Below are positions 2,060 to 62,580 of a DNA stretch of 64,000 bases, one piece after another; within the stretch, counting starts at the first letter, position 1, and every line of letters begins with the position of its first letter. The notes beneath the pieces were generated by a model. It did no database searches, was not told where the DNA came from, and saw nothing but the letters and a program-made list of their open reading frames with translations. Source of the DNA: Rhina ancylostomus (Eukaryota); assembly GCA_030265395.1 (NCBI GenBank), contig JARFYF010000052.1:57416372-57480371 (forward strand), in the 5' to 3' direction. The position numbers and the translations under genes are program-made.

Positions 2060-2185
2060 TAAATCAGGAAATGCTGGAAATACTCAGCAGATCAGATAAC
2101 ATCTGTAGAGAGGAAATGGAGATAATTTATCAATTCTTCTGCAGCACTGCCTGACCTGTCGAGTATTTCTAAGATTTCCTGTGTT
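2060..2185. mobile_element. Penelope-terminal-derived fold-back element
   Basis: caggaaatgctggaaatactcagcagatcag pairs imperfectly with ctgcctgacctgtcgagtatttctaagatttcctg. Both arms resemble the elasmobranch PLE terminal repeat. Confidence 0.6.
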
Positions 2186-3882
2186 TGTTATGAGAAGGTG
2201 GTGAGTAACCAGCAGCAACATCAGCCTGACAGGTCAACTAAGGTTCCACTATTCGCACCAATGGAGGGTACTACTGGGAGCCCACTTCTTATTCTGTGGC
2301 TGCAATATTGAATTTGTAAATGTGAACTCTGTACTGTACTTGTGCAAGTATTCATAGCAAACAGCAAGGGTTAATTAGGCTGATCAATATCTGGGGTTTC
2401 TCCAGTAATCTAACTCTGATTGTTGGCCTGAATGACACAAAGAGATCTAGTTCCGATTGTTAGTGTTAATGACCAAAATTTGTAGTCTTAACAATGGGCT
2501 TGAATGATATAGAGTACACAATTTTGAATGTCCATAGTCATGAGAGGTAATGTATCAGATCTATCCAACTTCATCACATTTGTAGATTTTAACTTCCACC
2601 AAATTTTATTTTAATTAACAATATATAGTTATTTTATCCATTTATGTAATTAAGTCTACAGATGGCTTCATGAAGTAGAACCACTAATGGGATAAGTCCA
2701 TGAGTATTAAGGCGTGAAGTATTTTACTAACACTTTCAGGTTCAGGTTAAAATACAAGATGTCAAACTGAACTCAACTGATCCAAAGTAAATTCTTCCAA
2801 ATTAATCCAAATATCCCTCCTTTGACCTGTTTAATTTTAATGGTCATTAGTGTAGCAATAACTTTAGTCAGAAAAATTATGTGACCAATGGGTAGCTATT
2901 TCAGGACAGTCAAAAGTATACCATGCTATCCTGGTAAAATAAATACTTTGATGATCCTGGTTTACAATTCTCGTCATTCTTGATTAAACACAGGTGCTTT
3001 TCCTTGAAATAAAATCCTATTTAGTCATTTCCGTCTAATTTAAAAAAAACAAACTTACATTTTAGATGAATAATAAGACAAATACACATTAGAAAGGATC
3101 ATTAAAGCCTAAAATATATTCTGTTTTATTTAATTTTAAGCCAGTAGTGATGTAACCTTGTCTGGTTTGGATTTAGTAACTATCACCATTAATAGAGTCA
3201 CTGTACATAAACTGAATTTTAAAAAAGCTGAAGATTGCATTATTTTAAAATAAAATGGGTTTAATAGTATTCACTTTGGGAATTTGGTGGAGCAAATTCA
3301 TTTCAATTTCCACAGTGTTGTCAGTAATATAAAAATTAGACCTTTTTGACAATGAACTAAAGATTCTGCCAGATTAAAGGCCAATGATAGAAATGAAATT
3401 TGGTCATAATATGATTAATTTCATCATTTATACACAGAGGGATCTTAACTTCATTACTGCAATAGATCAGCTTATACATTAATAAGAGCATTTTTCTGAC
3501 TGGTATTATAAACCAGGGCAATGTTTTGTTCTCAGTCCCTTTGACAGTTCCCACTATAGCACAACCTAGTATGTAACTGGGTTCCAATCTGCTCAAATGG
3601 CCTAAGCAGCTCATTATCACACATGAAAAAGATGCCCCATCATATCTGATATTGAATATGCNNNNNNNNNNNNNNNNNNNNNNNNNNNGGAAGCTGTCTA
3701 ACTTTTGTTCTTAGAGTGCATAAGTTGTCCTTGCTTCCCTGCCACATACTGTATATCGGTGCTAAGTATGCTAGATTGCCTGTGTGTATGTAAAATCATG
3801 GAATCACAAACACTTAGAGCATTTAATTTTGGCTCATTGTGCCCATTTTGACCAAAAATGAAACTTGTTAGATTATGCATTC

Positions 3883-4230
3883 ATAGATTAAAAGAGTCAT
3901 ACAGCACAGAAATGGGCCCTTCAGCCCAAATCATCCATGCCAGCTAAGATACTTTACTAGGCTAATTCCATTTGCCTGCAGTTGGCCCACATTCCCCTAA
4001 ACCTCGCCTATCCACGTACCTGTCCAAATGTTTTTTTTAGATGTAACTGTACCCACCTCTACTACCTCCTCTGGCAGCTTGTTCCAATATACCCACAAAC
4101 CTCTGTGTGAAAGGCTTGCCCATCAAATCCCCTTTAAAATCTTCCCCCTCTCACCTTAAGCCTATGCCCTTTAGTTTTAGACTCACCTACTCTAGGAAAA
4201 CAACTAAGTCTATCCAATCTTTGCTTATAA
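3883..4230 (-). mobile_element. CR1 LINE 3' end
   Basis: Reverse complement of the typical CR1/HER1 tail (catacagcacagaaatgggcccttcagccc...acctgtccaaatg...tcaccttaa). Confidence 0.8.
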
Positions 4231-4259
4231 CTCGAGCCCTCAAACCCTAACTTCTCCGC

Positions 4260-4900
4260 TTTTGGTCCACATCCATGTAAATGTTTATCCAAGTAAATTT
4301 TATCTGCAATGAGGGTTTCAACAATGAGTTCCTGAACCCAACTTGTTCCTGCTTGAAAAAGATTCCTCTACTCCCTTCTCATTATTCTATCAATTATGTT
4401 TAATCAATGAACCCTAGCTATATGCTTCTCTGCCAAGTGATCATGTCCCATTTCTATTCACCCTGTCTGCACCTCTCAATACTTCATTTAAATCTTCTTT
4501 ACTCCAACAAAGAACTGCCAAAGCTGGTCAGTCTCTTCAAAACTATAACTTTCTAGCCAAGGCCGTGACGTAATCCACACCAATTATTCTGCACTCTTCC
4601 GAGTGCTGCCCCATCCTTCCTGCAGTGTGGTGACAAGACTTATATACTGTACCCAAGCTGGAATGTTTTGGCTTGTTCTTATATTCAGTGTCAAGATTAT
4701 AAAGCGGTATCCTATATACCTTTAACCACCTTGTCTACCTGCCCTACTACCTTCAGAGACCTCCAGCTATGCACACCAAGATCCCTCTTAGTCTCCAACC
4801 ATTTACTGTGTATCCTTTTGCCTTGTTTTTCCTCCCCTAATGTATTTACCTCAGATTCCTCAGGATTGAATTCTATTTGTAACTTTGTGCCCTCCTCATT
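4260..4900 (-). mobile_element. Old degenerate CR1 fragment
   Basis: ccatccttcctgcagtgtggtgac (reverse complement of the SPHYRKD-like motif) and accaccttgtctacctgccct are CR1 RT C-terminal signatures. Confidence 0.6.
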
Positions 4901-6039
4901 TGTTAATTTTTAACTTTAGTAACTCCAAACAAAATATGATTAATTCAAAGAGAACACCGCAGAAGGTTCATTTTACATTCAGCATATTACATATGTGCAA
5001 CTACTGAAAAGCTATTTGCATTCTTACATAATGCAAGGTAGATAACCAAGCGATTTTCAGTTATTATTGTCAGCTATACATTACAAATTGACTTTAAGAA
5101 ATGATAAATTATTTTTAAGCATGCATGATTCAGGGTAGAGAGCATCATATCAGCACTTGTTGGTCTTTCCCACAACTCTTCTTTCACTTACTTTATTTCC
5201 ACTTTTAATTGATTTGTCATTTCCTCCTGGTCTTGTACAAGAAAGCAACTCTTGCTTTGCTATGCTTCATTCAATTAAGCATTTTTTTATATCTTAAATT
5301 CATTCAATTGATGGAACTTAAGTATGCTGATCTTTCTCTGAAGCTTGCCTCTGTTCTCTCGTCAGAGATCACCACCATCTTTGAGAGAACATCCCTTCAT
5401 AACTCAGCAATTTCCATTTTGGAGAATTCACCTTTCTGTAATTTCTGCAACTTCTCATAGTGAATAACTGATAAAGCACATCTGGTTTGCTGCCCTATTC
5501 CAAGGGTCAAGAGACTCATTTCCTGCTTGTTAAAGTGATGAACTGTGATTATAGTGGCTAAATTCTGATTGGATGGTTGAGATTCCCTCATGCTGTTCTT
5601 GATCAGAAAATGCTGTGTTGCTGTCTGAGTTGTACTCTCACAGTTAATGCAGAATACAACTGTACAATGGGTTTTAATGTCTGATGACCACAAATCTCCC
5701 CACACTGCTATATCTGAAGAATAATTGACCTTTAAAGATAACCATAAAGTAATAAAATGTACTATAGCATTTTGCAAAATCTTAATTATACAAATAAGTT
5801 AAATTAAATTGAGGGAGCTTTTAGTTAATTACTTCCTGCCTGCACATCTTGACTTGCTTTATCCTTACTAATTTTTCCACCAGACCTGTTCATTCAGCAG
5901 ATCATATTTCAGTCCAGTTTCCAGCAGTCTTTCAGACGAATGCAAGATTCACATCAAATTTCCCCAACTCCATCAGCAACTTGGAATACTAAAACAGGAC
6001 AAACTGGTAACAGTGGAACTTCATCTTACTTATTATTTT

Positions 6040-6278
6040 ACAGCATAGACCATACCAATTCCCTACTGAGCAATCCCATCTGTCCCATTCCTCCTTTACT
6101 TACTTTCCCTGCAGTTTGTTTTTCTTTCTTTCTCTTTCTCTATCCCTATATCTCTCTGTATATCTCTGTATATCTCTCTCATGCCCATCAATTCTCCTTT
6201 GGTTCCTTTTCATCACTTACCTTCAATAAAGGGTAAATTACTGTAGCCAATTAATCTACCGGCATGTTTTTGGGAGTT
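6040..6278 (-). mobile_element. HE1/V-SINE 3' part, interrupted by a Rex element
   Basis: gggtaaattactgtagccaattaatctacc...tttttgggag is the reverse complement of the V-SINE core. Confidence 0.6.
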
Positions 6279-6680
6279 GTCAAAGTTGAGTTTATTGTCA
6301 TATACACAAGTATATGTATGCACAGGTGCAATGCAGCAGCATCACAGGCACATAGCGTCATATAAGCAGCATTCACAGGAAAAACATAATTTAAACATAA
6401 ATTATACAAGAAAAAACACAATTAGAACAAAAAAAAGCTAAGTCCATTGTAGTGCAAAGAAGTCATAGCGTTGCTATACTGAGGTCACAACTGGGATTAC
6501 GCAAGTTAGTTCAAGAACTGAATGGTTGAAACTGATGTTGTAGGACTTTAGGCTTCTGTGCCTCCTGCCCGATGGTAGGTGTGAGAAGATGACATGGCCC
6601 AGATGGTGGGGATCTTTGATGATAGATGTTGCCTTCTTGAGGCAGTGCCTTATGTAGATACTTTCAATGATGAGGAGGGA
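6279..6680 (-). mobile_element. Rex1/Babar-type LINE 3' end
   Basis: The minus strand reads ...CLKKATSIIKDPHHLGH..LPSGRR.., and the tail appears on + as tcaaagttgagtttattgtcat. Confidence 0.75.
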
Positions 6681-7229
6681 GTTATGAACCTAACTGAACA
6701 AAATAAATTATTCCCACATGTCTAGAGCAAAGAATGTCACTGCAGAAAGAGAGAGATAGATTATGATATTTTTGATGTCTAGCCTTTATGAGCATGGAAG
6801 GCACAAGTCAGTAGCCCCAATCTTTTTCTCTAGATTCTAAGTATCTGCTGTGTATTTCCAGCATTCTTAATCAATCCTTTTAATGTTCAGTTTATGCCAA
6901 TAATGATTAACAGTGAGGCCACATATCCTTCCAATGTTCTTGACCACTGGGTTAAGGCAGTCAAAAACAAAGAAAATTGTCCACATGGTTTTGTTTTGCC
7001 CATATTTAGCAAGTATACATATGAACATACAGACAGTAATAGATAAAAAGCTCTGATGATCTCTCCAGTTTGTCTGACATAAGTGCAACATGCACTTTAC
7101 AATGCAGATATTTTTGTCTACTCTATCTGGAAGCCAAGTAATTTCTTAAGAAGTGAAAATCCAAGTTAAAGAGCCAAGGCAAATAGGGGAAACAAATCTT
7201 AAAACCAAAAAAAACATTGCATACTTGCC

Positions 7230-7420
7230 CCCTCACCTAGATCCACCTATCACCTGCCAGCTTTTGCTCCACCCCTTCCCTCCACCTTTTTATACTGGCT
7301 ATCTCCCTTCTTTCTTTCAGTCCAGATGAAGGATCTTGACCCAAGGTGTTGACTGTCCGTTTCACTCCATTGGTGCTGCCTGGCCCACCAAGTTCCTCCA
7401 GCTGTTTGTGTGTTGCATAT
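7230..7420 (+). mobile_element. Penelope-like element 3' terminal repeat with a decayed hammerhead motif
   Basis: cacctatcacctgccag...cagtccagatgaaggatcttgacccaaggtgttgactg...gttcctccagc...tgtgttgc. Confidence 0.75.
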
Positions 7421-7927
7421 TGTGTACTTGCACCTTTTCTGTTTATGTACATAAGAACATAAGGATAAGAAGTGATCATTCAACTCACCATACTCTCCTG
7501 TAATGCACACATATAAGAAATTTATTCAAAGGCTTCTCCCTATCCAGGATAATATATAGGTCACTGGCACCCCAATTTGTTCATCCATCCAAGGAAATTA
7601 CTATTGGTAGTGGTTATCTTTAAAGGAGATCTTCATCCTTTACCAAAATCAAGGAGAAATGAATTTCAGGCAAGTATTAACACTTTATGTATCAATGGAA
7701 TTTTGGGAATCCTGTTTGTGTAAAAACATTGAACCTGAAGGTTATGTGCAGCATTGATCACCAGGGGTGGGGAACCATAGCTATAATGAGAATCTTGAAC
7801 CACTTCCCACTGAAACAGAGAAAGTAAAGAGGAGATTCAAGCTTTACTTTAGAATTATGAAGTGTTATTATAATGCAAATAGAGAAACTTGGTTGGTGAC
7901 AAAGTGGCATAGTATTGTCAATTTTAA

Positions 7928-8155
7928 GGAGACACAAGAGACTGCAGATGCCGGAATCTGGAGTAGCAAACAATCTGCTGGAGGAACTCAGTGGATTGGG
8001 CAACATCTATGGGAGGAAAGAAATTGTCAATGTTCCAGATCAAAACCCTGCAACAGATCCTGATTCGTGGTTTCTACCCAAAAAATCAACAATTCTTTTC
8101 CTCCCACAAATACTGTTCACTCCACTGAGTTCCTCCAGCAGATTGCTTATTGCTA
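7928..8155. mobile_element. Palindromic non-autonomous Penelope-derived element
   Basis: Perfect 25-bp inverted repeat 7971-7995 / 8121-8145, inner arms 8010-8027 / 8089-8106, and the PLE terminus ggagacacaagagactgcagatgccggaatc. Confidence 0.8.
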
Positions 8156-10369
8156 TCATCAACTTTAAATTATGAGTAAAGAAAAAAAGTGATGGAGATG
8201 GAAAGTCTTCACTTATTTGGTTGTTAAAACATGGAATGCTTCATAGATCATAGGTCCAAGAAGAACCATTACTTCCCTTAAGAAAATAAACTAAATAAAT
8301 AGAAGAGTGAAAAGGAGAGAATATGGCAGTGGGATTGGTTTTGCATTGACCCAGGAAAAAGGCATTATTTTACTTCCTCCTCTGCCTTAGATTTCTGTGC
8401 CCTCTCTTATATCTCGTTCTTTTACCTTAGTGAATTGATCTTTTCTAGATTGTTACCAGCTTATGGTGTTTAATTATATTACTATTTTTGATTTTTTTGG
8501 AATTGGCGTTTGAGTGCATGTTATAAGAAAAGCACATATTAAATCTGTACTTTTCCAAAATTACATCAAAATTCATCACTTACTATATAAGTAGTAGAAC
8601 AAAGCTTCGGTTAAGTCCGTAGAAAAAAATTGATGTAAGTGAGATCAATGATGGATGCAATGCTTGATTCCAAAACAATACCAGATAATAAGGATGTCCA
8701 GCCGTGGGAAGGTCTGGAAAATATGTCATTCCTGACTGGCTATGTGTCCAAAATACTTTATTAAGATATCATAATTTACTAATTTGATGTCCAGCTGGCA
8801 CCAAGCACTCTGCAAAGTAATATTTCAGGCTCTTGAGCTTCCATCATTTTTTAAAATGTAAATAAATGATAAAAAGTACTTGCCTATGCACTTTTACCAT
8901 ACTTTAGTAATTTGCCTCTATTTGCCTCTATTCTCTAGAGTTCACAAATCAATATTGGTTTTGCAATAGCATTCATGACAGTTATTTTAAATAAATTGCA
9001 AATTAATAAAGTTGACTTCCAGAAAGACTAATTAGATACTGTGCTTTGAACTGAAAAAGCCTTTATCAAATGATTTGCAAGTTTTTACTGATAAAAAGAG
9101 TTGATTAAAAAGCCAGGCTAGCATGGAAATGCAGCCCTTTCCAGGGGAAAGCAGACAAATTAACTCACTCAGGAGTCTGCTGTTAATTTTTCAAGCTGTG
9201 AAAAACAGATCTGAGCCTATTTATTGCCCAGGCTATAAGAGGATAGGGGTTCAGAGCCTTGCTGAATAGACCACCTCTGCCACAGGGAGGAATCCAGATG
9301 AGGTCAACCCGGCACCCTCTATTTCCTGTCCCAGAGACATTCCTGATAAACATGAATGTTGTAAACTCTTTGAAAATCTCATGGGAATGCTTTCTGGTAT
9401 TTATGCACCATTGACCCTTTTTAACTTAATTATGCACTCGTGCTTTCATGTTTATTTACATAACACTAGTTACAAGTATTTTAAGACTCTTAAACTGCAT
9501 TAGAAATGAGAAGTGAGATGTACTGACTGGTGTATTGTTGAGCACCCTTAACTGCTCCTCTCTGAGATGTTACTTTGCCCATCGCAAAATATAATCTGAT
9601 GTATCTAAAGCCAACCTTTGTTTTAGTTCCTTTTCTTAATCTCAGATTTAGATATTTTCACCTGGGTTCCATCACTCTTTCTACAAAAGAGTATTCCAGG
9701 ATCTTAATATTGGTACTCTATTATCATAATCATCCTTTACAAATGGAGACAGAGGTACTTTGAGGTAACTTTTCTTTGAACGTTGTAAATCAAGGTGTGA
9801 AATTTAATATTATATCTTCACATAAAGACAGAGTTCATTCATTTTAGCCTCTGTGTGGTTCAAATGGCATCTAGGTTTTTTATTAGAGACTACCAGTGCT
9901 GGCTGTCAGTAGCCTACCTGATGATCCTGATGATGGTACATTGCATTAGATCACACCTACTCATCTTTCCCTTTCACAGAATATAGAGGAAAACAAAATA
10001 AATGTACTTCAGGCAGAATGAGTGGAAGTGAAATTACCTGGAGAAAGATTTCTTCTGTCGCTTTACTGTAATGAAACTGAGCACCTATTTATAAAACACA
10101 TCATTAAAATGAAACCCTATACTTAAAAGCACAGAGGAACGTCTTTTTAAAATGTATCTAGTCATACCCAGCTTTGTACATATATGGAAAGATCTTGGAT
10201 GATTCCAGTTCCCAAAAGCTTCCACAGAAAACACATTCAGGATGATTTTCCTTTTGCTGTAGCTGAGGAATACTACATTCCTATAAACAACGTAGAGGAG
10301 ATGAGGGGACAAGATTTCCTGGAGTTCTTCAAACTCATGCCTTGGCTTTAGATAGTGTGTGATAAATCC

Positions 10370-11357: not shown

Positions 11358-11800
11358 GGGAGACACAAGAGACTGCAGATGCTGGAATCTGGAGCAAAAA
11401 CCAAAGTACTGGAAGAACTCAGTGGCTCAAGCAGCATCTGTGAATGCAAAAGCGATGTGTTGAAATTTTGTGTTAAGACTCTGCATCAAGATTTGGGGGA
11501 GGGGGAGGGACAGGGACAGGGGGAAGGGAATGATAGCCAGTATACATACGTATGGGGGAGGGGNNNNNNNNNNNNGAGATGGAGCCAGGCTGGGGAGGGA
11601 GGTGGGGTGGGTTGGTGGGGGGAGATGAGGGTTGGAAAAGGTAAACAAAAGGAGAAAGAACATGGGTGGACCAGTAGGATAGGAAAGGAACACAGGAGGT
11701 GTGGGTTACCTGAAATTGGAAAATTTACCGTTGAGCTGCAGGCTACGCAAGCAGAATATGTGTTGTTTTTCTAGTCTGTGTTTGGCCTTACCGTAAGGGA
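11358..11800 (-). mobile_element. Penelope-like element 3' end (GIY-YIG C-terminus plus terminal repeat)
   Basis: The minus ORF ...AKHRLEKQHIFCLRSLQLNGKFSNFR resembles the PLE endonuclease C-terminus (RKLEEQHLIFRLGTLQP.GLN.EF.NF). The terminal repeat is as at 7928. Confidence 0.8.
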
Positions 11801-11819: not shown

Positions 11820-12130
11820 ATGTGACTGATGATGAGATCGTATCATGCTTTGCATTTTCCACCAGCTCCAACAGGATCCCACCACCAATCACATCTTACC
11901 TACTCCCTGCCCACTCCTGCCTCCTCAACCTTCTGCTCTCTGCAAGAACCACTCTCCCCATATCTCCCTGGTCCACTCATCCCTCCCCACTCACCCCTCC
12001 ATATCCCCTGGCACTTTGCCCTGCAAACATAGGAGGAGCAAACTTTGTCCCAACACCTCCTCCTCACCACTATCCAGGGACCTAAACAGCCCTTCTAGAT
12101 GAGGCAGAGATTCATGTGCACCTCCTCCCC
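11820..12130 (+). mobile_element. Penelope-like element internal fragment (RT-to-endonuclease linker), inverted relative to the adjacent 3' end
   Basis: Frameshifted peptides FHQLQQDPTTNHI..., SLVHSS, PGTLPCKHRRSKLCP and IQGPKQ...RQRFMCTSS are typical of the PLE Cys-rich linker. Confidence 0.75.
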
Positions 12131-12132
12131 CA

Positions 12133-13022
12133 TTTTAGAGGTGTATAAAATGTTGAGAGGGATAGATACAGTAGATAGCCAGCGCCTCTGTCCCAGGGCA
12201 CCAATGCTCAAGACAAGAGGGCATGGATTTAAAATAATGGGGGGGGATGTTCAGGGGGNNNNNNNNNNNNNNNNNNNNNNNNNNNNNNNNNNNNNNNNNN
12301 NNNNNNNNNNNNNNNNNNNNNNNNNNNNNNNNNNNNNNNNNNNNNNNNNNNNNNNNNNNNNNNNNNNNNNNNNNNNNNNNNNNNNNNNNNNNNNNNNNNN
12401 NNNNNNNNNNNNNNNNNNNNNNNNNNNNNNNNNNNNNNNNNNNNNNNNNNNNNNNNNNNNNNNNNNNNNNNNNNNNNNNNNNNNNNNNNNNNNNNNNNNN
12501 NNNNNNNNNNNNNNNNNNNNNNNNNNNNNNNNNNNNNNNNNNNNNNNNNNNNNNNNNNNNNNNNNNNNNNNNNNNNNNNNNNNNNNNNNNNNNNNNNNNN
12601 NNNNNNNNNNNNNNNNNNNNNNNNNNNNNNNNNNNNNNNNNNNNNNNNNNNNNNNNNNNNNNNNNNNNNNNNNNNNNNNNNNNNNNNNNNNNNNNNNNNN
12701 NNNNNNNNNNNNNNNNNNNNNNNNNNNNNNNNNNNNNNNNNNNNNNNNNNNNNNNNNNNNNNNNNNNNNNNNNNNNNNNNNNNNNNNNNNNNNNNNNNNN
12801 NNNNNNNNNNNNNNNNNNNNNNNNNNNNNNNNNNNNNNNNNNNNNNNNNNNNNNNNNNNNNNNNNNNNNNNNNNNNNNNNNNNNGGGAAATGGTAGGATA
12901 TGGACATTGTGTAAGCAGAAGGGATTAGTTTAGTTGGGCATTTTATTACTAATGTAATTGGTTCGGCACAACATTGTGGGCCAAAGGGCATGTTCCTGAG
13001 CTCTACTGTTCCATGTTCTATA
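12133..13022 (+). mobile_element. CR1 3' region (gapped)
   Basis: EVYKMLRGIDTVDSQRLCP..KTRGHGFK before the gap, and the CR1 tail gggccaaagggcatgttcctgagctctactgttccatgttcta after it. Confidence 0.8.
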
Positions 13023-19100: not shown

Positions 19101-20587
19101 TAGACTATGCATTGAAGTTTTCATTTATCTGTGGTCTTACAGATGGATGCATGCAGGTGAAGCTTTTTAATATACTGGAGCACACACCCAATAAGCCATG
19201 TAAGGTTAATATTGCTCTAGAAATAATATTGAAGAATGAAAGGGATTCCATTCCGTTCTGTGCAAGATGCAAACATGCATGTGCATGCTGTGTGTATGAC
19301 AACACGTACGGCAATGGTGATATCTTCTTCTTTAGGCCCAAATTGGGTGAATGCAAAAGGTAGGATACCCTGTTGTCATTGTCAGAGCAACCATTTAACT
19401 CTATTGCTTCCATCCAGGACAGTTCAATGTTTTAATTGTAACAAAATGGGACACAAACCACATCTGCAAAGGTAGATAAAATACAATGAGAAGAGATAGG
19501 TAGCAGTCCACTAGTATCCAAGTAGCAAGGAAGTAACTTTTGAAGCAATCACAGAGACGTGATCAGTATAATATCAATCAAGTGAAGTCAATTGGAAATG
19601 GACTTTCCATAGGATTAAATAGTAGCAAAAAAAATTTTCAAGATCACTTTCAGAAAAAAATGGCCAAAATCTAGAAATGTAGATTGTTTGATTATCAAGT
19701 GAGGCACATACAAAGGTTCAGCAGGTTTCCCATTAACCAGCAGCAATGTGGTATTAAGCACAAATTCAAATAAGCTACTAAAGATAATGGAGAGGNNNNN
19801 NNCTTCAGAACGGTTAGGAAGTGCATTGGCTATGGTAATGCAGACTAGACCTAAAGTCTAATGATCCTGGGCAGAGATTTATTATAGATATTCAAGCTTA
19901 ACTTAATATGGTGCATTATTCAGATCTGCTGCAATATACAGATCTATTCAAAAAATCCCTGCAGTAATACTGATGGATATAAGGCCCATATTCATATTTG
20001 GCAAGATGTAAACCCAATACATTGCCGACCTAGATGCCACTTCTCTTTGCCCTAAGTAGAGGAAGAGCTACAGAAACTGGAATATCATGAAGGTAGAGCG
20101 CATTGTTTGGGTGATGTCAATAGTCAATATGACAAGACTGTCCACCTCTGTGGCAGTTGAAAGACTAGTCTCACTAGAGCAGTGGATAATGAATGTCATC
20201 CCCACTTATATCCCAGGTTTCCTATGCAGAGCTGGCAGATGTATTGTTCTTTAAAAAGCTAAACTTGTCTCATCCATGTGCCCAACTTTTTGTGGACTGG
20301 GTGAGCTAAATTTACTGGACAGGTATACCCTAAAAGTTTCTACTTATTCACAAAACTAACCTATAGTATAAAATTGCCCCTAAGCTCTTTCAGGTGATAA
20401 ATTGATTGCCACTACATATTGAAGATCATTTGATAGGACCTGAAAAAGCTTTATAGAGGATCCATGGGCACAATGTCAAATTGAAAGTGTGTATCCAGCC
20501 TAAAGGTCTGTCAGAGAGAAGGTGGTAGTGATACAAGATGTCCACTAACTGGAGATCATCTCAGAGATTACAAAATACAGCTTCAAT

Positions 20588-20685
20588 AGTTCTGATGAAA
20601 AGTTATTAATCTGAAACAGTAACTCCGTTTCTCTCTCCTCTGATGCTACCTGACCTGTTGAGTATTTCCACAATTTTCTATTTTA
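20588..20685 (+). mobile_element. Penelope terminal repeat with hammerhead-like core
   Basis: agttCTGATGAaaagttattaatctGAAACagtaact...gatgctacctgacctgttgagtatttcc. Confidence 0.7.
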
Positions 20686-35899: not shown

Positions 35900-37340
35900 A
35901 ATAGCTAATCCCTTCCTCCATTTTAAACAAAAAAACAGTGTAAAGAGTCGTCCAGTCCTCTGACACCAATCCCAGAGCAAGAGAGGTTTGCTTCTTTCAC
36001 CAACCTGGGATATGTGTCATCCTGGCCTCGTGATTTATCCACTTCAGAGATGCTTATCCAATAAATATTTCCTCATTTACTATGATTATCTCATTCAATA
36101 TTTTACAATCTTCCATCTTAACTACAACATTAATATTGTCTCTCTTTAGTGACGGCAGCTATGAAGCATCCATTGAGAACCATAACTACATTCACTGCCT
36201 CTACTCTTTAATTACTTACTTGGACCCTGATAGGGCCTACATTTTGCTTAGTTATCCTTCTGCTTTTTATGTACATATAAAACCTATTTCATAATAAAAA
36301 CATAAAATAATAGAAAAATCTCAGCAGGTCAGGCAGCATATGTGGAGAAAGAACTAGTCAATACTTTGGGTCTCCAATGCTTCATCAGAACTTGGAAAGA
36401 GAGAGATCAGATTAGTTCTCAGTAGGAGAGAAGGTGGGGAGGGATGTGTAGAATAAAGAGAATTCCTATGATAGGATGAGTAAAATGGCTTAATGGTGGC
36501 AGTCAGCAGCACTAAGCTTCTTGGTCTGTGTAGTGTGTTGTTAATGGTGAAGTGGTGGCACCTGTCCTGCAAGCTAGAGTTGTATGAGTAGGATAAGAAA
36601 AACTGAGCCAACATGGCATAAAATCAGAAAATAGATCTTTTTATCCTACTTGTATATCCAATTTTTTGTATACTTTTTTATTTTCATAAACATCTTTGGA
36701 TTTTACTTCCAAACATTTTTGATTTTACTTCCTAATACTTTGTTTCAGCCATCTCTGTGCTTTCTAATATCTTTCAATTTCAGCCCTGCACTTACAATAT
36801 TCTTCTAGGCCTTATGTGTTTTAGATTCTCAGGATCTGGCATAAATATCAATTTATTGCCTTGTCTTATTTACACACTATACAATCCGAATACCTTGGAT
36901 TTGGCAGTCCCACCCTTTATTGTTAAGGGAACATGTTTACCCTGAATCTCTTGAATTTCCTTCTTCTCTGCCACCCACTGCTCTTTCAAGTAAATGCTTC
37001 AGTCTACTTCTGTTAAATCACTTCTCGACCTAGTGAGATTGGTCCTATCCTAATATGGAATCTATACTCCTAATTTATCTTTGTCCTTTTCCATAACTAT
37101 GCAAAACCTAACTGAATCATGATTACTGGCACAAAAAATATACCCCCACTGATACTCCTTCCACATTCCCTAAAATGAAATCCATTCCCCATCTCCACAC
37201 CCAATCCCCATTTCCCATGTCCAACCTAGTTCTTGTTTTATAAAGTTCGACTGAATGCAATTTAGAAGTTATGTGCCTCCTATATATTTTACACTAACTA
37301 GATCCCAATCACTTTTCATGAAATTGAAGTCTTCTATTAT
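35900..37340 (-). mobile_element. Old CR1 ORF2 relic (endonuclease-to-RT region), interrupted by a PLE end at about 36290-36480
   Basis: Minus ORF IIIEDFNFMKSDWD resembles the APE endonuclease motif IIMGDFNF..IDW. The KSRGQDD-like segment (KSPGPD) is at about 36020-36040. Confidence 0.6.
36290..36480 (-). mobile_element. Penelope terminal repeat with hammerhead-like core
   Basis: ctcagcaggtcaggcagcat...cttcatcagaact on +, i.e. agttCTGATGAa on the minus strand. Confidence 0.65.
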
Positions 37341-40589: not shown

Positions 40590-42500
40590 AACAATGTGTA
40601 GAGCTGTAGGATTTGACTTGGATGAAGACACCAAAGGTATTGTTGCCAAATTTGCTGACACAAAGTTAGATGGGAAAGTAAATTATGAAGAGAACTTTGG
40701 GTGTCCCAGTGCATAATTCACAAAAGGCTAGTATATAAGAACAGCAAGTGATTAGGAAAGCTAACAGAATGTTATCATTGATTGCTGGAGAAAAAAGTTT
40801 ATGCTTCTGTCATACAGGACATTGGAGAATTTCAACCAGTATTGGTCTCCTTATTTAAGGAAGGATGCTAATTTGTTGGAGGCAGTTCAGGCAAGGTTTA
40901 CTGGACTAGTGCTTGACTTGGACAAGTTGTCTAATGCAGAAAAGTTGAAGAGGCTAGATTTGTGTTGTTTTTTAAGGAGAGGGGATTTATTTGAAACATA
41001 TAAGATCTTGAGAGGTCTTGACAGGGTGGGTGTGGAGAGGATGATTCTNNNNNNNNNNNNNNNNNNNNNNNNNNNNNNNNNNNNNNNNNNNNNNNNNNNN
41101 NNNNNNNNNNNNNNNNNNNNNNNNNNNNNNNNNNNNNNNNNNNNNNNNNNNNNNNNNNNNNNNNNNNNNNNNNNNNNNNNNNNNNNNNNNNNNNNNNNNN
41201 NNNNNNNNNNNNNNNNNNNNNNNNNNNNNNNNNNNNNNNNNNNNNNNNNNNNNNNNNNNNNNNNNNNNNNNNNNNNNNNNNNNNNNNNNNNNNNNNNNNN
41301 NNNNNNNNNNNNNNNNNNNNNNNNNNNNNNNNNNNNNNNNNNNNNNNNNNNNNNNNNNNNNNNNNNNNNNNNNNNNNNNNNNNNNNNNNNNNNNNNNNNN
41401 NNNNNNNNNNNNNNNNNNNNNNNNNNNNNNNNNNNNNNNNNNNNNNNNNNNNNNNNNNNNNNNNNNNNNNNNNNNNNNNNNNNNNNNNNNNNNNNNNNNN
41501 NNNNNNNNNNNNNNNNNNNNNNNNNNNNNNNNNNNNNNNNNNNNNNNNNNNNNNNNNNNNNNNNNNNNNNNNNNNNNNNNNNNNNNNNNNNNNNNNNNNN
41601 NNNNNNNNNNNNNNNNNNNNNNNNNNNNNNNNNNNNNNNNNNNNNNNNNNNNNNNNNNNNNNNNNNNNNNNNNNNNNNNNNNNNNNNNNNNNNNNNNNNN
41701 NNNNNNNNNNNNNNNNNNNNNNNNNNNNNNNNNNNNNNNNNNNNNNNNNNNNNNNNNNNNNNNNNNNNNNNNNNNNNNNNNNNNNNNNNNNNNNNNNNNN
41801 NNNNNNNNNNNNNNNNNNNNNNNNNNNNNNNNNNNNNNNNNNNNNNNNNNNNNNNNNNNNNNNNNNNNNNNNNNNNNNNNNNNNNNNNNNNNNNNNNNNN
41901 NNNNNNNNNNNNNNNNNNNNNNNNNNNNNNNNNNNNNNNNNNNNNNNNNNNNNNNNNNNNNNNNNNNNNNNNNNNNNNNNNNNNNNNNNNNNNNNNNNNN
42001 NNNNNNNNNNNNNNNNNNNNNNNNNNNNNNCTCCGACCCATCATTATTTAAGATACGTCCTACTATGGTATATGGACATTGTGTAGGCGGAAGGGATTAG
42101 TTTAGTTAGGCATTTAATTACTAGTTTAATTAGTTCCACACAACTTTATGGGCTGAAGGGCCTGTTCCTGTGCTGTAGTGTTCCATGTTTTTTGTTTAAC
42201 TAGGAATCACTGTTTAAAAATAAAGGGTTACCAATTTAAGACAGAGATGAGATAAACATTTTTTTCTTTCATGGAGTCACAAGACTTTGGGACTCTATTC
42301 TTCAAAGAGTAGTGGAAGCAGAGTCTAAGCAATTTTAAGGCATAAGTAGATAGATTTTTGATAAGCAAAGGAGAGCAATGTTTCCATCAGTAGATGGGAA
42401 CATAGTATCATGGTTATAGTCAGATCAGTCATGTTTTTATTGAATGGCAGAGCAGGCTTGAGGGACTGACTGATCTGCAGTTACTCTTAATTTGTATGTT
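40590..42500 (+). mobile_element. CR1 RT C-terminus and 3' end, split by a 1-kb gap and nested fragments
   Basis: AKFADTKL motif; ORF WSPYLRKDANLLEAVQARFT..RRGDLFETYKILRGLDRV; the tail resumes at 42200-42500. Confidence 0.8.
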
Positions 42501-43162: not shown

Positions 43163-43487
43163 CACCCACCACTGTCTGTGTAAAAAAAAACTTGCCCCAC
43201 ACATCTCCTTTCCCCCTCTCACCTTAAATGCATGCCCTCTGGTGTTAGACATTTTGACCCTGAGGAAAAAGATAATGGCTGTCAACTCTGTCTATGCTTC
43301 TCATAATCTTATAAGCTTCTATCAGGTCTCCCATCAGCCTCTGATGCTCCAAAGAAAACAACCCAAGTTTGACCAGTCTCCCCTTATCGCATATGCCCTC
43401 TGATCCAGGCAGCATCCTGGTAAACCTCTTCTGCACCCTCTCCAAAGCCTCCACATCCTTCCTGTAATGGAGCAACCAGAATTGAAT
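43163..43487 (-). mobile_element. Relatively young CR1 RT C-terminal fragment
   Basis: HYRKDVEALERVQKRFTRMLPG...LGLFSLEHQRLMGDLIEAYKIMRSIDRVD. Confidence 0.9.
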
Positions 43488-44349
43488 AGTCTTTACTTGT
43501 TTTATTTTAATGTTGTTTATTATTTATTGGTATTTTGAATCTTTTAATTTTAAAATATTTTTTCAATTATTTCAAGCAATCTTAATAGTTTTCCAATATT
43601 TCTGATTGCGAGACTTTTAAAACCCATTTGGAAGCTGAAGCACCTCCCAAGCCTCAGACGTAGGATGTTCCTGGGGCAGGGCGTGGGATGACGTTGGTTT
43701 GTTTGTGCTCAGGCCTTAGTAAGTGCCATGAGAATTTTATTTGTCTTCAAGCTCTCCTTCAGTGGAATCAAACTTGCAGGGTGCACCACTGTATCATGGG
43801 CATGCTGCTTGTGATGGAGGATATATTTTACCCCTTGCTTGGGGCTTTACAATAATGCATTTTTACAGCCTTCTGTACTCAACGGTAGATGCAAATAGTT
43901 CACATCGTCAATGTTGTTCCCACATTTAGTTTGGACAAGGCGTCTCGCTGCAATTATACTGCTGAGGTCACACCTAGAAAACTGCATGAAGTTTTGGCCT
44001 CCTTATTTAAGGAAGGATGTACCTTCAGTGGAGGCAGTGAAGGTTCATTTGGCATTCCTTGTTTTATGAGAAAGGTTGAGCATGCAGAGCCTATGATCAA
44101 TGGCATTTAGGAGAGATGATCATATTGAAGTATTTAAGAACCTGAAGGACTTGCTAAGGTGGTTGTCAAGAGAGTTATTTTACCTAGTGGGGGAAATCTA
44201 AAACTAGAGAGAATAATATTAGAATAACAGACAAAGAGGAAGGATTAATGAAACATGTTTTACTGAGATCTCCTTAGATTAAGGAAGGAGTCATTGGCTT
44301 TATCTTGTTGGGTGGACCAAATGTCAGTACGAAAGCCTTGCAGAACATA

Positions 44350-46369: not shown

Positions 46370-48450
46370 TTGTGGAAAAAGAATAAAGGTCTTAAATTTA
46401 GGGGGGGCACAATTTCATTAACTTAAAGGAGGACCTAGCAAAGGTAGACTGGGAGCATCTGCTCATCTACTTGTAGTTAAGTCTACATCTGCACAGTGGG
46501 AAGCATTCAAAGGTGAAATAGAGTTCAAAGCTAACATGGTCCTGAAGGGTAAAAGATATGGGTAACAAGTATAGGGAACAGTAGGCATTGGGGTTGGATA
46601 AAGAGAAAAGAGAAGCATACAAGGAACTAATGATGGGGGAGGCTAGTCAATAATATAAAAAGTGTAGGGAGACACTTGAAGAGGAAATTAGGAAGGCTAA
46701 GAGGGGTCATGAAAAAATCACTGACAGACAGGATTAAAGTAAATCAGATGGTATTCTATAAGTATATTAAGGATGAAAGAATAACCAGGGGAATAATAGG
46801 GCCCATTAGGAATAAAAGGGACAATCTGTGTTTGGAGCCAGAAGATATAGGTGAGACTTTCACAATTCACAAAGGAAACAGACTTTGTAGTTGGAGATTT
46901 CAGTGAGGGGGTAGGTGAAAGGGGTAGGCATGTCTACATAAATAAAGAGAAGGTAATTGATGCCTTAGTAGGCTTAAAGGTGGATAAATTACCAGGACAG
47001 GATGGGATTTATCTAAGGTTACTATGGGAGACAAGGGAAGAGATTGCTGGGGTTCTGGCTGAGAATTTTAAACCTTTGCTGGGCAAGTGAGATACCAGAT
47101 GACTGGAAGACAGCAAATGTGAATCCCTTTTCAAGAAATACAGCAGGGAAAAGTCTGGTAACTATCAACCTGTGAGCATAACGTCAGTGAGAGGGAAGAT
47201 ACTGGAAAAAGTTCTGAGGGAGAAGATTAATATTCACATGGAAAGGCAGCAACCAATCAGACAGCCAACATGGTTTGTTAAGGGAAGATCCTGTCTGACC
47301 AATTTGATTGCATTATTTGACGAGATTGGTTCAAAAGGTTAGGACCCAAGGGATCCAGAGCAAGTTGGCAAACTGCATCCAAAATTGGCTTGGCAGTAGG
47401 AGACAGAGGGTTGTTTTCGTGACTGGATGCCCGGTGACCAGTGGTGACCCGCAAGGATTGGCGCTGGGACCCTTGCTCCTTGCAATATATATGAATTACT
47501 TGGATTTGGATGCAGGATATGTGATCAGTAGGTTTATGGATGACAGGAAGATTGGCAGAGTTGTTAGTGTGGAAGTTAGTCTTAAGCTGCAGAGAGATAT
47601 CGATGTGTTGGTGAAATGGGCAGAAAAATGGCAGACGGAGTTTAATCCAGATTAATGTGAGGTGATGCTTTTTGGGAGTACTAATGAGGCTAGGTCATAC
47701 ACCATGAATGGTAGGTAGTGTGGAGGAACAGAGTAACCTTGGAGTACAAGTCATTAGACCCTTGAAGGTGACAACACAGATAGATCTTGTGGTTAGGAAG
47801 GCACATAGGACACTGGCCTTCACTAGTCAGGGTACTGAAATTAAAAGTAGGGAGGTTAGCTAGTTTTGAACAGAAAAAGGAGTAGAATAGGTATAAGACT
47901 TTGGTCAGACCCATCTGGGGTACTGCATGCATTTCTGGTCACCATGCCACAAAAAGGATGTGATAGCACAGGAGAGGGTGCAGAGGAGATTTCTCAGGGT
48001 GATGCCTGTGATGGAGCAGTTCAGTTATGAGAAGCTAGGTCTGTTTTCCCTGGAGTGGAAGTGGTTATGAGGGGACATTATTGAGATATATAAAATGACG
48101 TGGGGGGGATGCAGGATACACTGCAAGAATCATTTCCCAATATCAGAGGTAGATAAAACTAGATGATATAGATTTAAGGTAAGAGGGAAGAGACTTGGAG
48201 AGGATATGAGGGGGACTTCCTTCACCCAGAGTGGTAGGTATCTGGAATGCACTGCCTCAGAGAATGGTTTAAGCTGGGTCACTGATAGCATTTAAACAGT
48301 ATGTAGACAAGCACTTGAATTGCTTAGGCATAGAAGACTATGGAACAAGTGCTGGATGATGGAGTTAATTTTGAAAAGTGCCTGCTGGTCAGTGTGTACA
48401 AGTTGGGCCAGATGGCCTGTTTCCATACTGTATGTATCTATGACTCTATA
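46370..48450 (+). mobile_element. 5'-truncated CR1 (about 2 kb; RT and 3' UTR)
   Basis: LKVDKLPGQDGIYLRLLWETREEIAG; GDPQGLALGPLLLAIYMNYLD..SRFMDDRKIG..LQRDID..KWAEKWQTEFNPD; tail tgtatctatgactctat. Confidence 0.9.
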
Positions 48451-48769
48451 CACTTCTAACTCTGTCAGTGTGATGAGCCCAGGCCTCTCAAAAGTGTGGG
48501 GACACTATGGCTCAGGACTCAATCTGTGTGGATGATTGTGCAGTGGGAGCCAAGCACCTGAAAGCATGTGCCCACCATCTCCCCATAGTTCCCATCTCCA
48601 TAACAGCCTTTTCTGCCACTGCTCCATAGCTGCCATAGGACGANNNNNNNNNNNNNNNNNNNNNNNNNNNNNNNNNNNNNNNNNNNNNNNNNNNNNNNNN
48701 NNNNNNNNNNNNNNNNNNNNNNNNNNNNNNNNNNNNNNNNNNNCCACTGCTCCATAGCTGCCATAGGAA

Positions 48770-50436
48770 GAGATTGACTTTTCACTGCCCTTAAGTGGTT
48801 TAGCAATCAACAAAGGAAGAGTTGGCGATATTGACTTACATTAAGGCGGACAAATCCCCAGGGCCTGATGAGATCTATCCCAGGGTGTTATTGGAAGCAA
48901 GTGAGGAGATTGCTGGGGCTGTGAAAGAGATTTTTGCATTATCTTTAGCCATAGGTGACATACTGGAAGTTGGAAGGTAGCTAATCTTGTTTCCATATTC
49001 AAGAAGGATGGTATAGGTAAGACAGGAAACTGCAGGAAAGCGAGCCTTACATCAATAGTAAGGATACTCTTGGGAAAAGTTCTTAGGAATAGGATTTATT
49101 ATCACTTGGAAAGACAGGAACTGATTAGGGAAAGTCAGCATGGTTTTGTGCAAGGGAAATCCTAGTTCATAAATCTGAGTTTTTTGTGGAGGTTACTAAG
49201 GAAATTGATAAAGGCAAGGTGGTAAATGTCATAAGGCCTTTGACAAGGTCCTGCACAAAAGTCTGGTCCAGAAATTTAGGCACATGGGATTCAAGGCATT
49301 TTGGTAAACTGGATCCAAAATTGGCATGATGATAGGAGGTGGAGATTAATAGTGGAGGGTTGTTTTTCTGACTGTAATTCTGAAAGTGGTGTATACCATA
49401 AGGATTGATGCTGGGACCTCTGTTTGTCTTATATATAAATGGTTTGGATGAGAATGTCTGTGGTCTGGTAAGTTTGCTGACAAAATGAAGATTGGTGAAG
49501 TTGTAGATGGTGAAGATGGTTGCCTAAGGATACAGAGGGACATAGATCAGCTGGAAAGTTGGGCAGAGAGGTGGAAGATGGAATTTAATCTGGACAAGTG
49601 TGAGGTAATGCTTTTTGGATCATCTAATACTGGCCAGACATATACAGTAAACAGCAGGGACCTTAGAGTTGATGTACAGAGGGACCTTGGGTGCAAGCTC
49701 ATAGCTTTCTGAAAATTGTGGCACAGTTAGATAGGATAGTGAAGAAAGCATTTAGTTTGCTTGCCTTTGTAGGCAGGGCTGTTGAGCATAAGAGTGGGGA
49801 CACCATTTTGCAGCTGTACAAGACATTGGTTAAGCCACACTTTGAATATTAAACAAGTTTTTCATTGCAGCTGTGCATATATGTACTTGTGCATATGACA
49901 ATAAACTTGACTTTCACCATTATGTGCAGTTCTGCTCACCACACTATAGAAAGGATGTGGCAGCACTAAAAATAGGGCAGAAGAAATTTGCCAGGATGTT
50001 GCCTGGAAGGGAAGGCTTTNNNNNNNNNNNNNNNNNNTGGCTGGGATTGTTCTTACTGAAGTGCAGGAGACTGAGGGGTAACCTTATGGAGGCTTATCAA
50101 ATTGAGGGTCACAGATAGATAGTCACAGTCAATTTCCAAGGTAAGGGAGTCTAAAACCTGAGTTTTAACAGGAGAGGGGAAATAGTTAAGGGGGTCTAAA
50201 GGGCAAATTTTTCACACAGAGGGTGGTGGGTTAATAGAACAAGCTGCCAGAGAAGGTGGTGGAGGCAAGTATAATCACAGCATTTAACAAGCAGTTGGAC
50301 AGGTAGTTGGATAGGAAAGGAATGGAGGGATATGGTCCAAATGTTGGGAAATGGGATTAGTGCAGATGGGCATGTCAGTCAGCATAGGAGACTTGGGCCA
50401 AAGGGCCTGTTTCTGTGCTGTACAACTCTAATTCTT
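48770..50436 (+). mobile_element. 5'-truncated CR1 (RT and 3' UTR) with a short Rex-type tail inserted at about 49850-49914
   Basis: DKSPGPDEIYPRVL; KIGEVVDGEDGCLRIQRDIDQLESWAERWKMEFNLDKCEV; SPHYRKDV; standard tail. Confidence 0.9.
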
Positions 50437-60169: not shown

Positions 60170-60695
60170 TAAATAATTGCTGAGAAATGTTAAAAATCAA
60201 AGAAATTGTAGATTCCGGATAAAAAGAGAAACTACTGAAAACATTCAGTGGATCAGACAGCATCTGTCGAAAGAGAAACAGAGTTAACTTTTCGAGTCAA
60301 AGACCCTTTATCAGAACTGGGAAAGAGGAATAAAACAAGGTCGTGTTAAGTTGCAGAAAAGATAGTAGGAGGGAGAGATGGAACAAGAATATTTCGGATA
60401 GGATGAGGCTAGGGTGGCCATGGTGATGGGTTGCAGGGGGTTACCCAGTCAAATGGGTTAATAGGGGCAAGATGGTGATAATAAAGACAAAGAATTATAA
60501 TGTGCTACTAATAGCAGTTGTGAGACATACCCAGAAGACCAGGCTGTACTAATGGAGAGAGAGAAACTGAGCAAATATATCAGATGGATGACTTATAGCA
60601 GGAATGACTGTCGGAGGAAGTGTGACCTAAAGTTGGAGATTTAATCCAGAAGGCTGCAATGTGCCCAAACTGAATATGGGGTGCTGCTCCTTATG
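60170..60695 (-). mobile_element. Penelope-like element 3' end with a hammerhead-like motif
   Basis: The minus strand encodes KEQHPIFSLGTLQPSGLN (GIY-YIG C-terminus) at about 60640-60692. The terminal repeat with a hammerhead fold is at 60282-60318. Confidence 0.75.
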
Positions 60696-62580
60696 TTTCT
60701 TGGAAGATGCTTCTGGCTTATCCTGGTGAAAACCTTTCTTTGTGACATTATAAGCTTATTTAAAGTTATCCAACTTCAAAATAAAATACAGAAAAGAGAA
60801 TATTTTTCCTATTGATTAAAGGAAATGGAGAACAGGCTTCAAACTGCAAGTATTGGGGCTGAGACAATCAGTTCCTTTAAAAAAAAAGTTCTTAAAATCT
60901 GATTGGAAACAAGACCAGAAATTGTAGGTACAAATTTTTCTAATCTACAACAAATGGGCTGGAATGTCTTGGATGTTGCTGAAGGATGTTTTTGTAGAGA
61001 ACAGCAGATGCAATTGAATAGTGATAAATTAGGATGGAAAAGTATTTTGGAGTGTGGCTTAATTACATTTGAGATGCAGGAAGTACTTTGGCAGAATTTT
61101 CTCATAAGTAGTTAACTGCATGTGTTGATTCCATGATTGGATAGATTGCTTATAGTCTATGGAAGACATTAGCTTGATTAGCCTTTTCTGATCCCATAAT
61201 TTAAGTTCTTATATTTTAAGGATGTGTTCAGTTTTATTTCCATATCACATTAGTTAATAGTAAGATAATCACCTGAACGACAGTGAAAAGTATTAAAATT
61301 TCAATTAGCAGGCTCTAACAACCACACTTCCCCATTTACAGTACTTTTGTTTATTTTCAGTTGAATATCATTGAGAATCCCCCAGGGAAAAGGTTGTGCA
61401 GTCTGCTCAGACAAACTGAAACAGATGAGGGTAATGCAAGATATTTCAACAAGGACAATAACTTATGGTCGCTCTTTTATGAGCCTGAAAGCCATAATTC
61501 ATGAGAACTGCGGTCACAAATGAGTTATGCTTCTTTGCACACTTGAATTCGTCATCATTAGCAATACATACGTGTAAAGTAACACTGAAAATTGTTCATA
61601 TTTGCATTCACTTCCTCAAGTCAATTACGCAGGATGNNNNNNNNNNNNNNNNNNNNNNNNNNNNNNNNNNNNNNNNNNNNNNNNNNNNNNNNNNNNNNNN
61701 NNNNNNNNNNNNNNNNNNNNNNNNNNNNNNNNNNNNNNNNNNNNNNNNNNNNNNNNNNNNNNNNNNNNNNNNNNNNNNNNNNNNNNNNNNNNNNNNNNNN
61801 NNNNNNNNNNNNNNNNNNNNNNNNNNNNNNNNNNNNNNNNNNNNNNNNNNNNNNNNNNNNNNNNNNNNNNNNNNNNNNNNNNNNNNNNNNNNNNNNNNNN
61901 NNNNNNNNNNNNNNNNNNNNNNNNNNNNNNNNNNNNNNNNNNNNNNNNNNNNNNNNNNNNNNNNNNNNNNNNNNNNNNNNNNNNNNNNNNNNNNNNNNNN
62001 NNNNNNNNNNNNNNNNNNNNNNNNNNNNNNNNNNNNNNNNNNNNNNNNNNNNNNNNNNNNNNNNNNNNNNNNNNNNNNNNNNNNNNNNNNNNNNNNNNNN
62101 NNNNNNNNNNNNNNNNNNNNNNNNNNNNNNNNNNNNNNNNNNNNNNNNNNNNNNNNNNNNNNNNNNNNNNNNNNNNNNNNNNNNNNNNNNNNNNNNNNNN
62201 NNNNNNNNNNNNNNNNNNNNNNNNNNNNNNNNNNNNNNNNNNNNNNNNNNNNNNNNNNNNNNNNNNNNNNNNNNNNNNNNNNNNNNNNNNNNNNNNNNNN
62301 NNNNNNNNNNNNNNNNNNNNNNNNNNNNNNNNNNNNNNNNNNNNNNNNNNNNNNNNNNNNNNNNNNNNNNNNNNNNNNNNNNNNNNNNNNNNNNNNNNNN
62401 NNNNNNNNNNNNNNNNNNNNNNNNNNNNNNNNNNNNNNNNNNNNNNNNNNNNNNNNNNNNNNNNNNNNNNNNNNNNNNNNNNNNNNNNNNNNNNNNNNNN
62501 NNNNNNNNNNNNNNNNNNNNNNNNNNNNNNNNNNNNNNNNNNNNNNNNNNNNNNNNNNNNNNNNNNNNNNNNNNNNNNNN

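Follow-up and report, generated by a model that had tools for sequence, protein, structure and literature searches.

Does the minus-strand motif at positions 60282–60318 of the window (the whole 64,000-nt stretch of Rhina ancylostomus DNA analysed here) specify a self-cleaving RNA, and to what kind of element does it belong? The preliminary description read it as a hammerhead fold in a terminal repeat of a Penelope-like element (PLE), and the letters that it gave were found at 60318–60282 exactly as claimed. In hammerhead numbering it parses as a minimal type I hammerhead that has decayed. It comprises a stem I with four of four pairs (60318–60315/60285–60282), the core positions C3 to A9 (60314–60308), an extra A ahead of stem II (60307), a stem II with five of five pairs, one of them G-U (60306–60302/60298–60294), and G12 to A15.1 (60293–60290); cleavage is predicted after U17 at 60286, in a GUU triplet. 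There are two core deviations, G8>A at 60309 and C15.2>A at 60289. The former breaks the invariant core and the C3-G8 pair of an active hammerhead, and the latter introduces two A-G mismatches into the self-complementary stretch 15.1–16.1 from which helix III of a dimer is made. Because it carries both changes, this copy is likely inactive. Single mutants of G8 kill a PLE hammerhead according to passages of PMC11167929, the mutant assayed there being G8C and not G8>A.

The motif lies in a 5'-truncated PLE copy of about 480 nt, whole from 60216 to 60698 on the minus strand, which was identified by alignment to an intact relative, L215 (L215:553–1027, E 7.5e-17). About 300 nt upstream of the motif is a frame that ends like a PLE endonuclease; this remnant of the GIY-YIG C-terminus, with its stop codon, occupies 60627–60691 (minus strand) and is 77% identical to L215:560–611. 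Downstream of the motif, the conserved downstream part of the pseudo-LTR (pLTR) fills 60216–60281 (minus strand), and the copy stops about 65–70 nt beyond the cleavage site, where the first of the two clusters of 3' ends described below is found.

L215 was reached by walking from the endonuclease-like frame and is contig C2762 (G000:C2762), 1–3287. Its two ends are identical over 77 nt (terminal overlap), and it was therefore treated as a collapsed unit of 3,210 nt. Counted round this unit, it has a 917-aa frame in which Pfam detects RVT_1 (E 4.5e-5) and GIY-YIG (E 2.3e-4), neither of them reaching its curated cut-off, and which carries the motifs DKG and YIDD and, between reverse transcriptase and endonuclease, a CX4CXXC linker of the CX2-5CxxC type known from Neptune and Nematis. 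A single frame with the reverse transcriptase followed by a C-terminal GIY-YIG domain is the arrangement of an endonuclease-bearing (EN+) PLE. GIY-YIG and RVT_1 were also present among the Atlas look-alikes of related fragments, and Pfam recognised neither of two degraded reverse transcriptase fragments. Between the stop codon at L215:637–639 and an ATG at 1096, in the pLTR, L215:925–961 is a minimal type I hammerhead with no core deviation; it has the extra A, G-C at 10.1-11.1 and a palindromic ACGU. Among the 18 endonuclease C-termini of an unselected sample, 14 had a motif on the same strand within 650 nt (about 7% expected by chance), the other four consisting of three at a gap or end and one without a motif; at selected loci the figure was 40 of 65. 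This linkage to GIY-YIG and reverse transcriptase bears out the proposed minimal type I hammerhead in a Penelope pLTR.

Two further candidates were rejected, as the '762-aa frame' of locus L131 proved to be an assembly gap, and likewise L196. The closest other match to the L215 pLTR was 82% identical over 101 nt, and the top long match 77% (40 candidates scored). Young, near-identical copies may have been collapsed into the L215 contig. About 0.8 of the sampled words of L215 are shared by six runs, whose kind is unrecorded and which bear six organism codes; no RNA run was listed as sharing them, which is no evidence on expression. L215 may represent a young family collapsed in assembly, one that has spread to related species, or DNA of foreign origin. 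In L215:962–1095 and in the window (60281–60240), a second pyrimidine tract with CAG lies about 20 nt past the cut site and is followed by ATG. In the L215 region, a GT also lies 19 nt after the ATG, and the long frame is immediately preceded by a third acceptor-like site; judged from the letters, these two would, if spliced, join in frame. Folding makes of the same region a long hairpin.

How common, and how well preserved, is the motif? An exact core with free stem II matched 2,915 times in the 2.2-Gb genome, compared with four matches for a reversed-pattern control. A profile, trained in part on 61 of them, was then applied to 119 position-selected stretches (the window, 14 neighbouring stretches and 104 spaced samples; 1,073,770 non-N bases). 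It gave 237 matches, and none in reversed sequence; 139 of the 237 span the motif. Scaling suggests, by extrapolation, about 5x10^5 copies in the genome, about 3x10^5 of them motif-spanning. The column majority of the 139 spanning copies is a full minimal hammerhead, CUGANGA ... GAAAN ... NUH, so that the claim of a family consensus with a full core stands, and the extra A ahead of stem II is present in 94% of these copies. Individual copies are mostly broken: 15 of the 139 keep the core, four of these also the palindrome, and three both stems as well. Three of the 139 sampled copies are intact by their letters, which does not support the implied spread of a working self-cleaving RNA through the genome. 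A neighbour on the same strand within 300 nt was seen for 6 of the 139 copies, and a partner on the opposite strand within 120 nt for 72 of the 237 matches.

The window itself holds ten profile matches, two head-to-head pairs among them. Three sister copies are present where the preliminary description had placed them. That at 7318–7355 (plus strand) belongs to a subfamily other than the target's, with C-G as the innermost pair of stem I, and has five core changes and one mismatch, A-C, in stem II. The copies at 20588–20624 (plus strand) and 36356–36392 (minus strand) are in the target's subfamily cluster; the first starts at the stem I edge and has two core changes (G16.2>A and U16.1>G) and one stem II mismatch, the second four core changes and two stem II mismatches. 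All four named copies are thus broken, in agreement with the earlier statement that each has at least one core change. Decayed copies absent from the first list include a head-to-head pair at 7955–8151, the minus copy of which has C at position 9, and a minus-strand copy at 11386–11494, also with C at position 9; heavily decayed pLTR ends form another head-to-head pair at 2061–2189. Another linker/endonuclease piece of the element lies at 11837–12153 (plus strand) and aligns to L215:62–363.

The copies had been placed in an intron, and this was not borne out: no host exon was found in the window among open frames and splice-scored candidates, 60 of 158 of which were scanned with Pfam. The copies may thus lie in an intron or between genes. 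Pfam matched none of eight candidate frames in one set and one of 60 in another, the one being a zinc knuckle. A weak zf-CCHC match at 19338–19469 (plus strand; E 0.0047, below the cut-off) is perhaps a retroelement remnant. Decayed frames at 46850–49700, 40765–41048 and 43245–43523 resemble reverse transcriptase and 3' ends of CR1-type LINEs. About 27 kb before the window, an open frame of 126 codons (L055 2543–2920, plus strand) has good splice-site scores and a protein-like composition; it gave no Pfam match and is a possible host exon on these features.

Changes in the stems had been called compensatory among the named copies, and covariation taken as a sign of selection on them. The only such change among the four is the innermost stem I pair of 7318–7355 (C-G for U-A). 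We clustered the 139 spanning copies on downstream columns only, which gave five subfamily clusters, and tested pairs by a column shuffle over all sequences, in which relatedness is ignored. Over all copies, two of the nine stem pairs reached p<0.01, the innermost pair of stem I (p 0.009) and 10.1-11.1 (p 0.001); among the other seven, only II.3 reached p 0.017. Within clusters, the values for the first two were 0.75 and 0.09, and two other stem II pairs gave nominal p values of 0.035 and 0.045, which are not significant over 12 tests. No within-subfamily pair passes correction, so that covariation among these copies is not supported as a sign of selection. The paired changes separate subfamilies. 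The innermost stem I pair is U-A in 39 of 62 copies of the target's cluster; the other four clusters have C-G there or products of its CpG decay. The pair 10.1-11.1 is A-U or G-U in 39 copies of the target's subfamily and G-C in seven. Because paired changes are found between and not within subfamilies, pairing was probably kept in master elements and the copies have decayed since.

The pattern of decay was measured against the majority of each cluster. C3, U4, G5, A6, G8, GAAA and stem II are kept in the majority of all five clusters. Identity to the cluster majority is 88% for the non-CpG core, 80% for the stems and 85% for the downstream sequence, the palindromic CG at 15.2-16.2 is retained in 22 of 132 copies, and mean divergence ranges from 8 to 22% by cluster, with 22% in the target's cluster.

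The ends of copies provide information on how they were made. Copies span the cleavage site, seldom start at it and end 60–110 nt past it. Of 197 matches mapped on L215, three start at 955–959 (around the cut site) and 69 at 920–939; 151 end at L215:1000–1079, with 3' ends clustering approximately near 1020 and 1050–1065. These ends are taken from local alignments to the element of one subfamily and are approximate; upstream sequence varies among subfamilies, which adds to the start peak near 920. On the upstream side of the 139 spanning copies, 38 run into a pyrimidine tract, 26 of them with YAG bordering stem I; 50 enter unrelated sequence within about 3–8 nt of the core, a class that includes some misassigned longer copies; 22 turn into an inverted copy; and the remaining 29 were excluded because of erosion or gaps. 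In the target, a pyrimidine tract with a terminal CAG at the 5' edge of stem I (60317–60345, minus strand) forms a putative 3' splice site. Either a transcription start or a 3' splice site could explain why copies stop at stem I; the intron of a D. virilis PLE ends at helix I (passages of PMC4209133), and the Penelope promoter is treated in parts of PMC2377424. A spliced first exon common to copies that start at stem I was not found in 50 upstream stretches, and contigs aligned to L215 showed no GT..AG joint among the 15 of 63 joints listed, which is no evidence on splicing; assembled contigs cannot show RNA ends. The traits of an EN+ PLE, a tandem pLTR arrangement, inverted 5'-truncated copies and a tail, are all present.

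Taken together, we consider it highly probable that the target is a decayed minimal hammerhead in the pLTR of an EN+ PLE, that this copy is inactive, as its letters make likely, and that it decayed neutrally after insertion. In the parent element, tandem units would be transcribed. Their RNA would be cut, slowly, only as a strand-swapped dimer held by the palindromic ACGU or with the help of the element's protein, as passages of PMC4209133 and PMC11167929 suggest; since a single motif lacks a stable stem III, a monomer would not cut alone. PLE minimal hammerheads cleave weakly and in a dimer-dependent manner, and single ones did not cleave in vitro (passages of PMC4209133). For L215 the modelled dimer fold has an energy of -15.5 kcal/mol, and for the target one of -0.4; in neither is it the optimum, the cofold minimum for L215 being -27.3. 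New copies were likely primed on uncut RNA, 60–110 nt 3' of the cleavage site. Copying would traverse the entire motif and in many cases end at the 5' boundary of stem I; alternatively, it would flip into an inverted copy or, as in the target, continue into the endonuclease tail. Inserted copies would then decay neutrally, CpG loss affecting the palindrome of stem III and also G12. It is on master elements that selection for the fold would have acted, and paired changes would for this reason appear only between subfamilies.

The alternative that survives best, which we regard as possible without favouring it, accepts the same element and supposes that the hammerhead-shaped RNA is kept mainly for a role other than cutting (protein binding, template handling, or a splice or promoter signal), cleavage being dispensable. 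It agrees with copies derived from uncut RNA and with the YAG and pyrimidine tract at the stem I edge. In passages of PMC11167929, the anole hammerhead cuts only with protein, and cleavage is not needed for insertion in vitro; Naiads are described in parts of PMC8557442 as without canonical hammerheads. It also agrees with the amplification of a subfamily altered at position 9. The base after G8 among exact matches is A in 2,915, C in 1,588, and G or T together in 205. C at this position (C9) marks whole clusters, 18 of 23 copies in one of them, and these clusters have a downstream sequence of their own; the main C9 branch has a stem I of 3 bp. Against a non-cutting role, the majority of all five clusters keeps the core positions listed above and the intact element keeps every core base, as selection on catalysis predicts; moreover, the C might be bulged out between G8 and the A that follows it, which would then serve as A9 and leave catalysis intact.

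The letters allow either reading of C9, A9 replaced or a C bulged ahead of an A9 that abuts stem II. That the C9 core CUGAUG-C-A is an active natural variant, with the C bulged between G8 and A9, seems to us unlikely, though worth naming. The published consensus has A at position 9, and no C9 string occurs in the supplement text searched (PMC4209133, supplement). A literature search for hammerhead A9C found no paper, and passages of PMC3088659 name other core variants. C9 was seen in 1 of 25 readable motifs linked to an endonuclease (29 unreadable) and in 3 of 30 loci with any endonuclease match, both counts being open to query bias. Five head-to-tail units of 35 nt, each a bare hammerhead and four with C9, were observed at L173 3290–3445 (minus strand); the array would offer a multimeric substrate of natural origin.

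We judge it very improbable that the dispersed copies are working ribozymes in host transcripts, such as introns, covarying under selection. The three intact copies (about 2%) would scale to thousands, which agrees with the 2,915 exact cores; six copies have a near same-strand neighbour, and there is one natural 35-nt tandem array. Against this, all four named copies are broken, the core is kept no better than the flank, no within-subfamily covariation survives correction, and most copies are of the single kind that did not cleave in vitro.

A last reading, in which an abundant repeat resembles a hammerhead by accident, is already effectively refuted, and we attach almost no weight to it. In its favour, the loose core pattern is unenriched in the window (14 seen, 15.2 expected), neither the four named copies nor the intact motif folds better than shuffled sequence (z from +0.62 to -0.98), and Rfam is silent. 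Against it, the family majority and L215 have all four features that passages of PMC4209133 give from outside the descriptor or from the consensus, at the place expected in a PLE. The Rfam covariance models, a check proposed in the preliminary description, gave no hammerhead match in the window (E<=5) or in L215 (E<=10), so that the fold is without support from a curated model; since the intact motif of L215 was missed too, the blank on the window has little weight.

The target's family is the known minimal hammerhead of metazoan PLEs, as far as passages of PMC4209133 describe it. Both are of type I, with no real helix III, a short helix I, an extra nucleotide at 9/10.1, G10.1-C11.1, a palindromic 15.2-16.2 and the consensus CUGANGAH...GAAAN; both occur mostly as single dispersed copies, in several families per genome, in the pLTR of an element with reverse transcriptase and endonuclease. 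L215 shows the extra nucleotide, G10.1-C11.1, the palindrome and the missing helix III for the family, and its motif position, with the 14/18 linkage, places the hammerhead in the pLTR. A 2001 JBC paper on the extra nucleotide is cited in the review PMC3705267. The supplement text searched for the published set has no shark, skate or Callorhinchus entry, and C at position 9, present in one subfamily here, is absent from it. The extrapolated 3x10^5 or so spanning copies lie far above the 4,000–9,000 descriptor matches in coelacanth and Xenopus (passages of PMC4209133), the like-for-like count here being the 2,915 exact cores.

With PAc, the anole Poseidon element (passages of PMC11167929), the family shares a hammerhead in the pLTR, two downstream copy ends and an uncut RNA template. 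PAc belongs to the Poseidon clade and has its start codon inside the hammerhead, whereas the first ATG of L215 is 135 nt past the motif (L215:1096) and its protein has the CX4CXXC linker. Neptune and Nematis (parts of PMC8557442) have in common with L215 the reverse transcriptase followed by a C-terminal GIY-YIG, DKG, a CX2-5CxxC linker, tandem and inverted 5'-truncated insertions and a 3' hammerhead. By its motifs, the element is likely of Neptune or Nematis type; both share the linker, which does not separate them. Non-LTR retrozymes (passages of bioRxiv 10.64898/2026.07.22.740005) are likewise short units with PLE-derived hammerheads, and one chondrichthyan genome is among those reported. 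They are tandem non-coding arrays, whereas the target is a single truncated copy of a coding element, joined to an endonuclease tail. Literature searches found no paper on a hammerhead ribozyme in a cartilaginous-fish retrotransposon and none relevant for Penelope and shark; the family may already be listed in Repbase or in the bioRxiv supplements.

The finding thus extends a known association to a further genome, and the copy in question is a fossil. L215, a perfect motif in an intact, apparently young element, is a ready PLE substrate outside the Poseidon clade. The position-9 variant is relevant to the question whether transposition requires cleavage, a point left open in the passages of PMC11167929 and PMC8557442 consulted; if C9 is dead, its subfamily would be a genome-scale natural demonstration of PLE spread without ribozyme cleavage. 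As a pair, L215 and the C9 variant make the role of PLE hammerheads directly testable.
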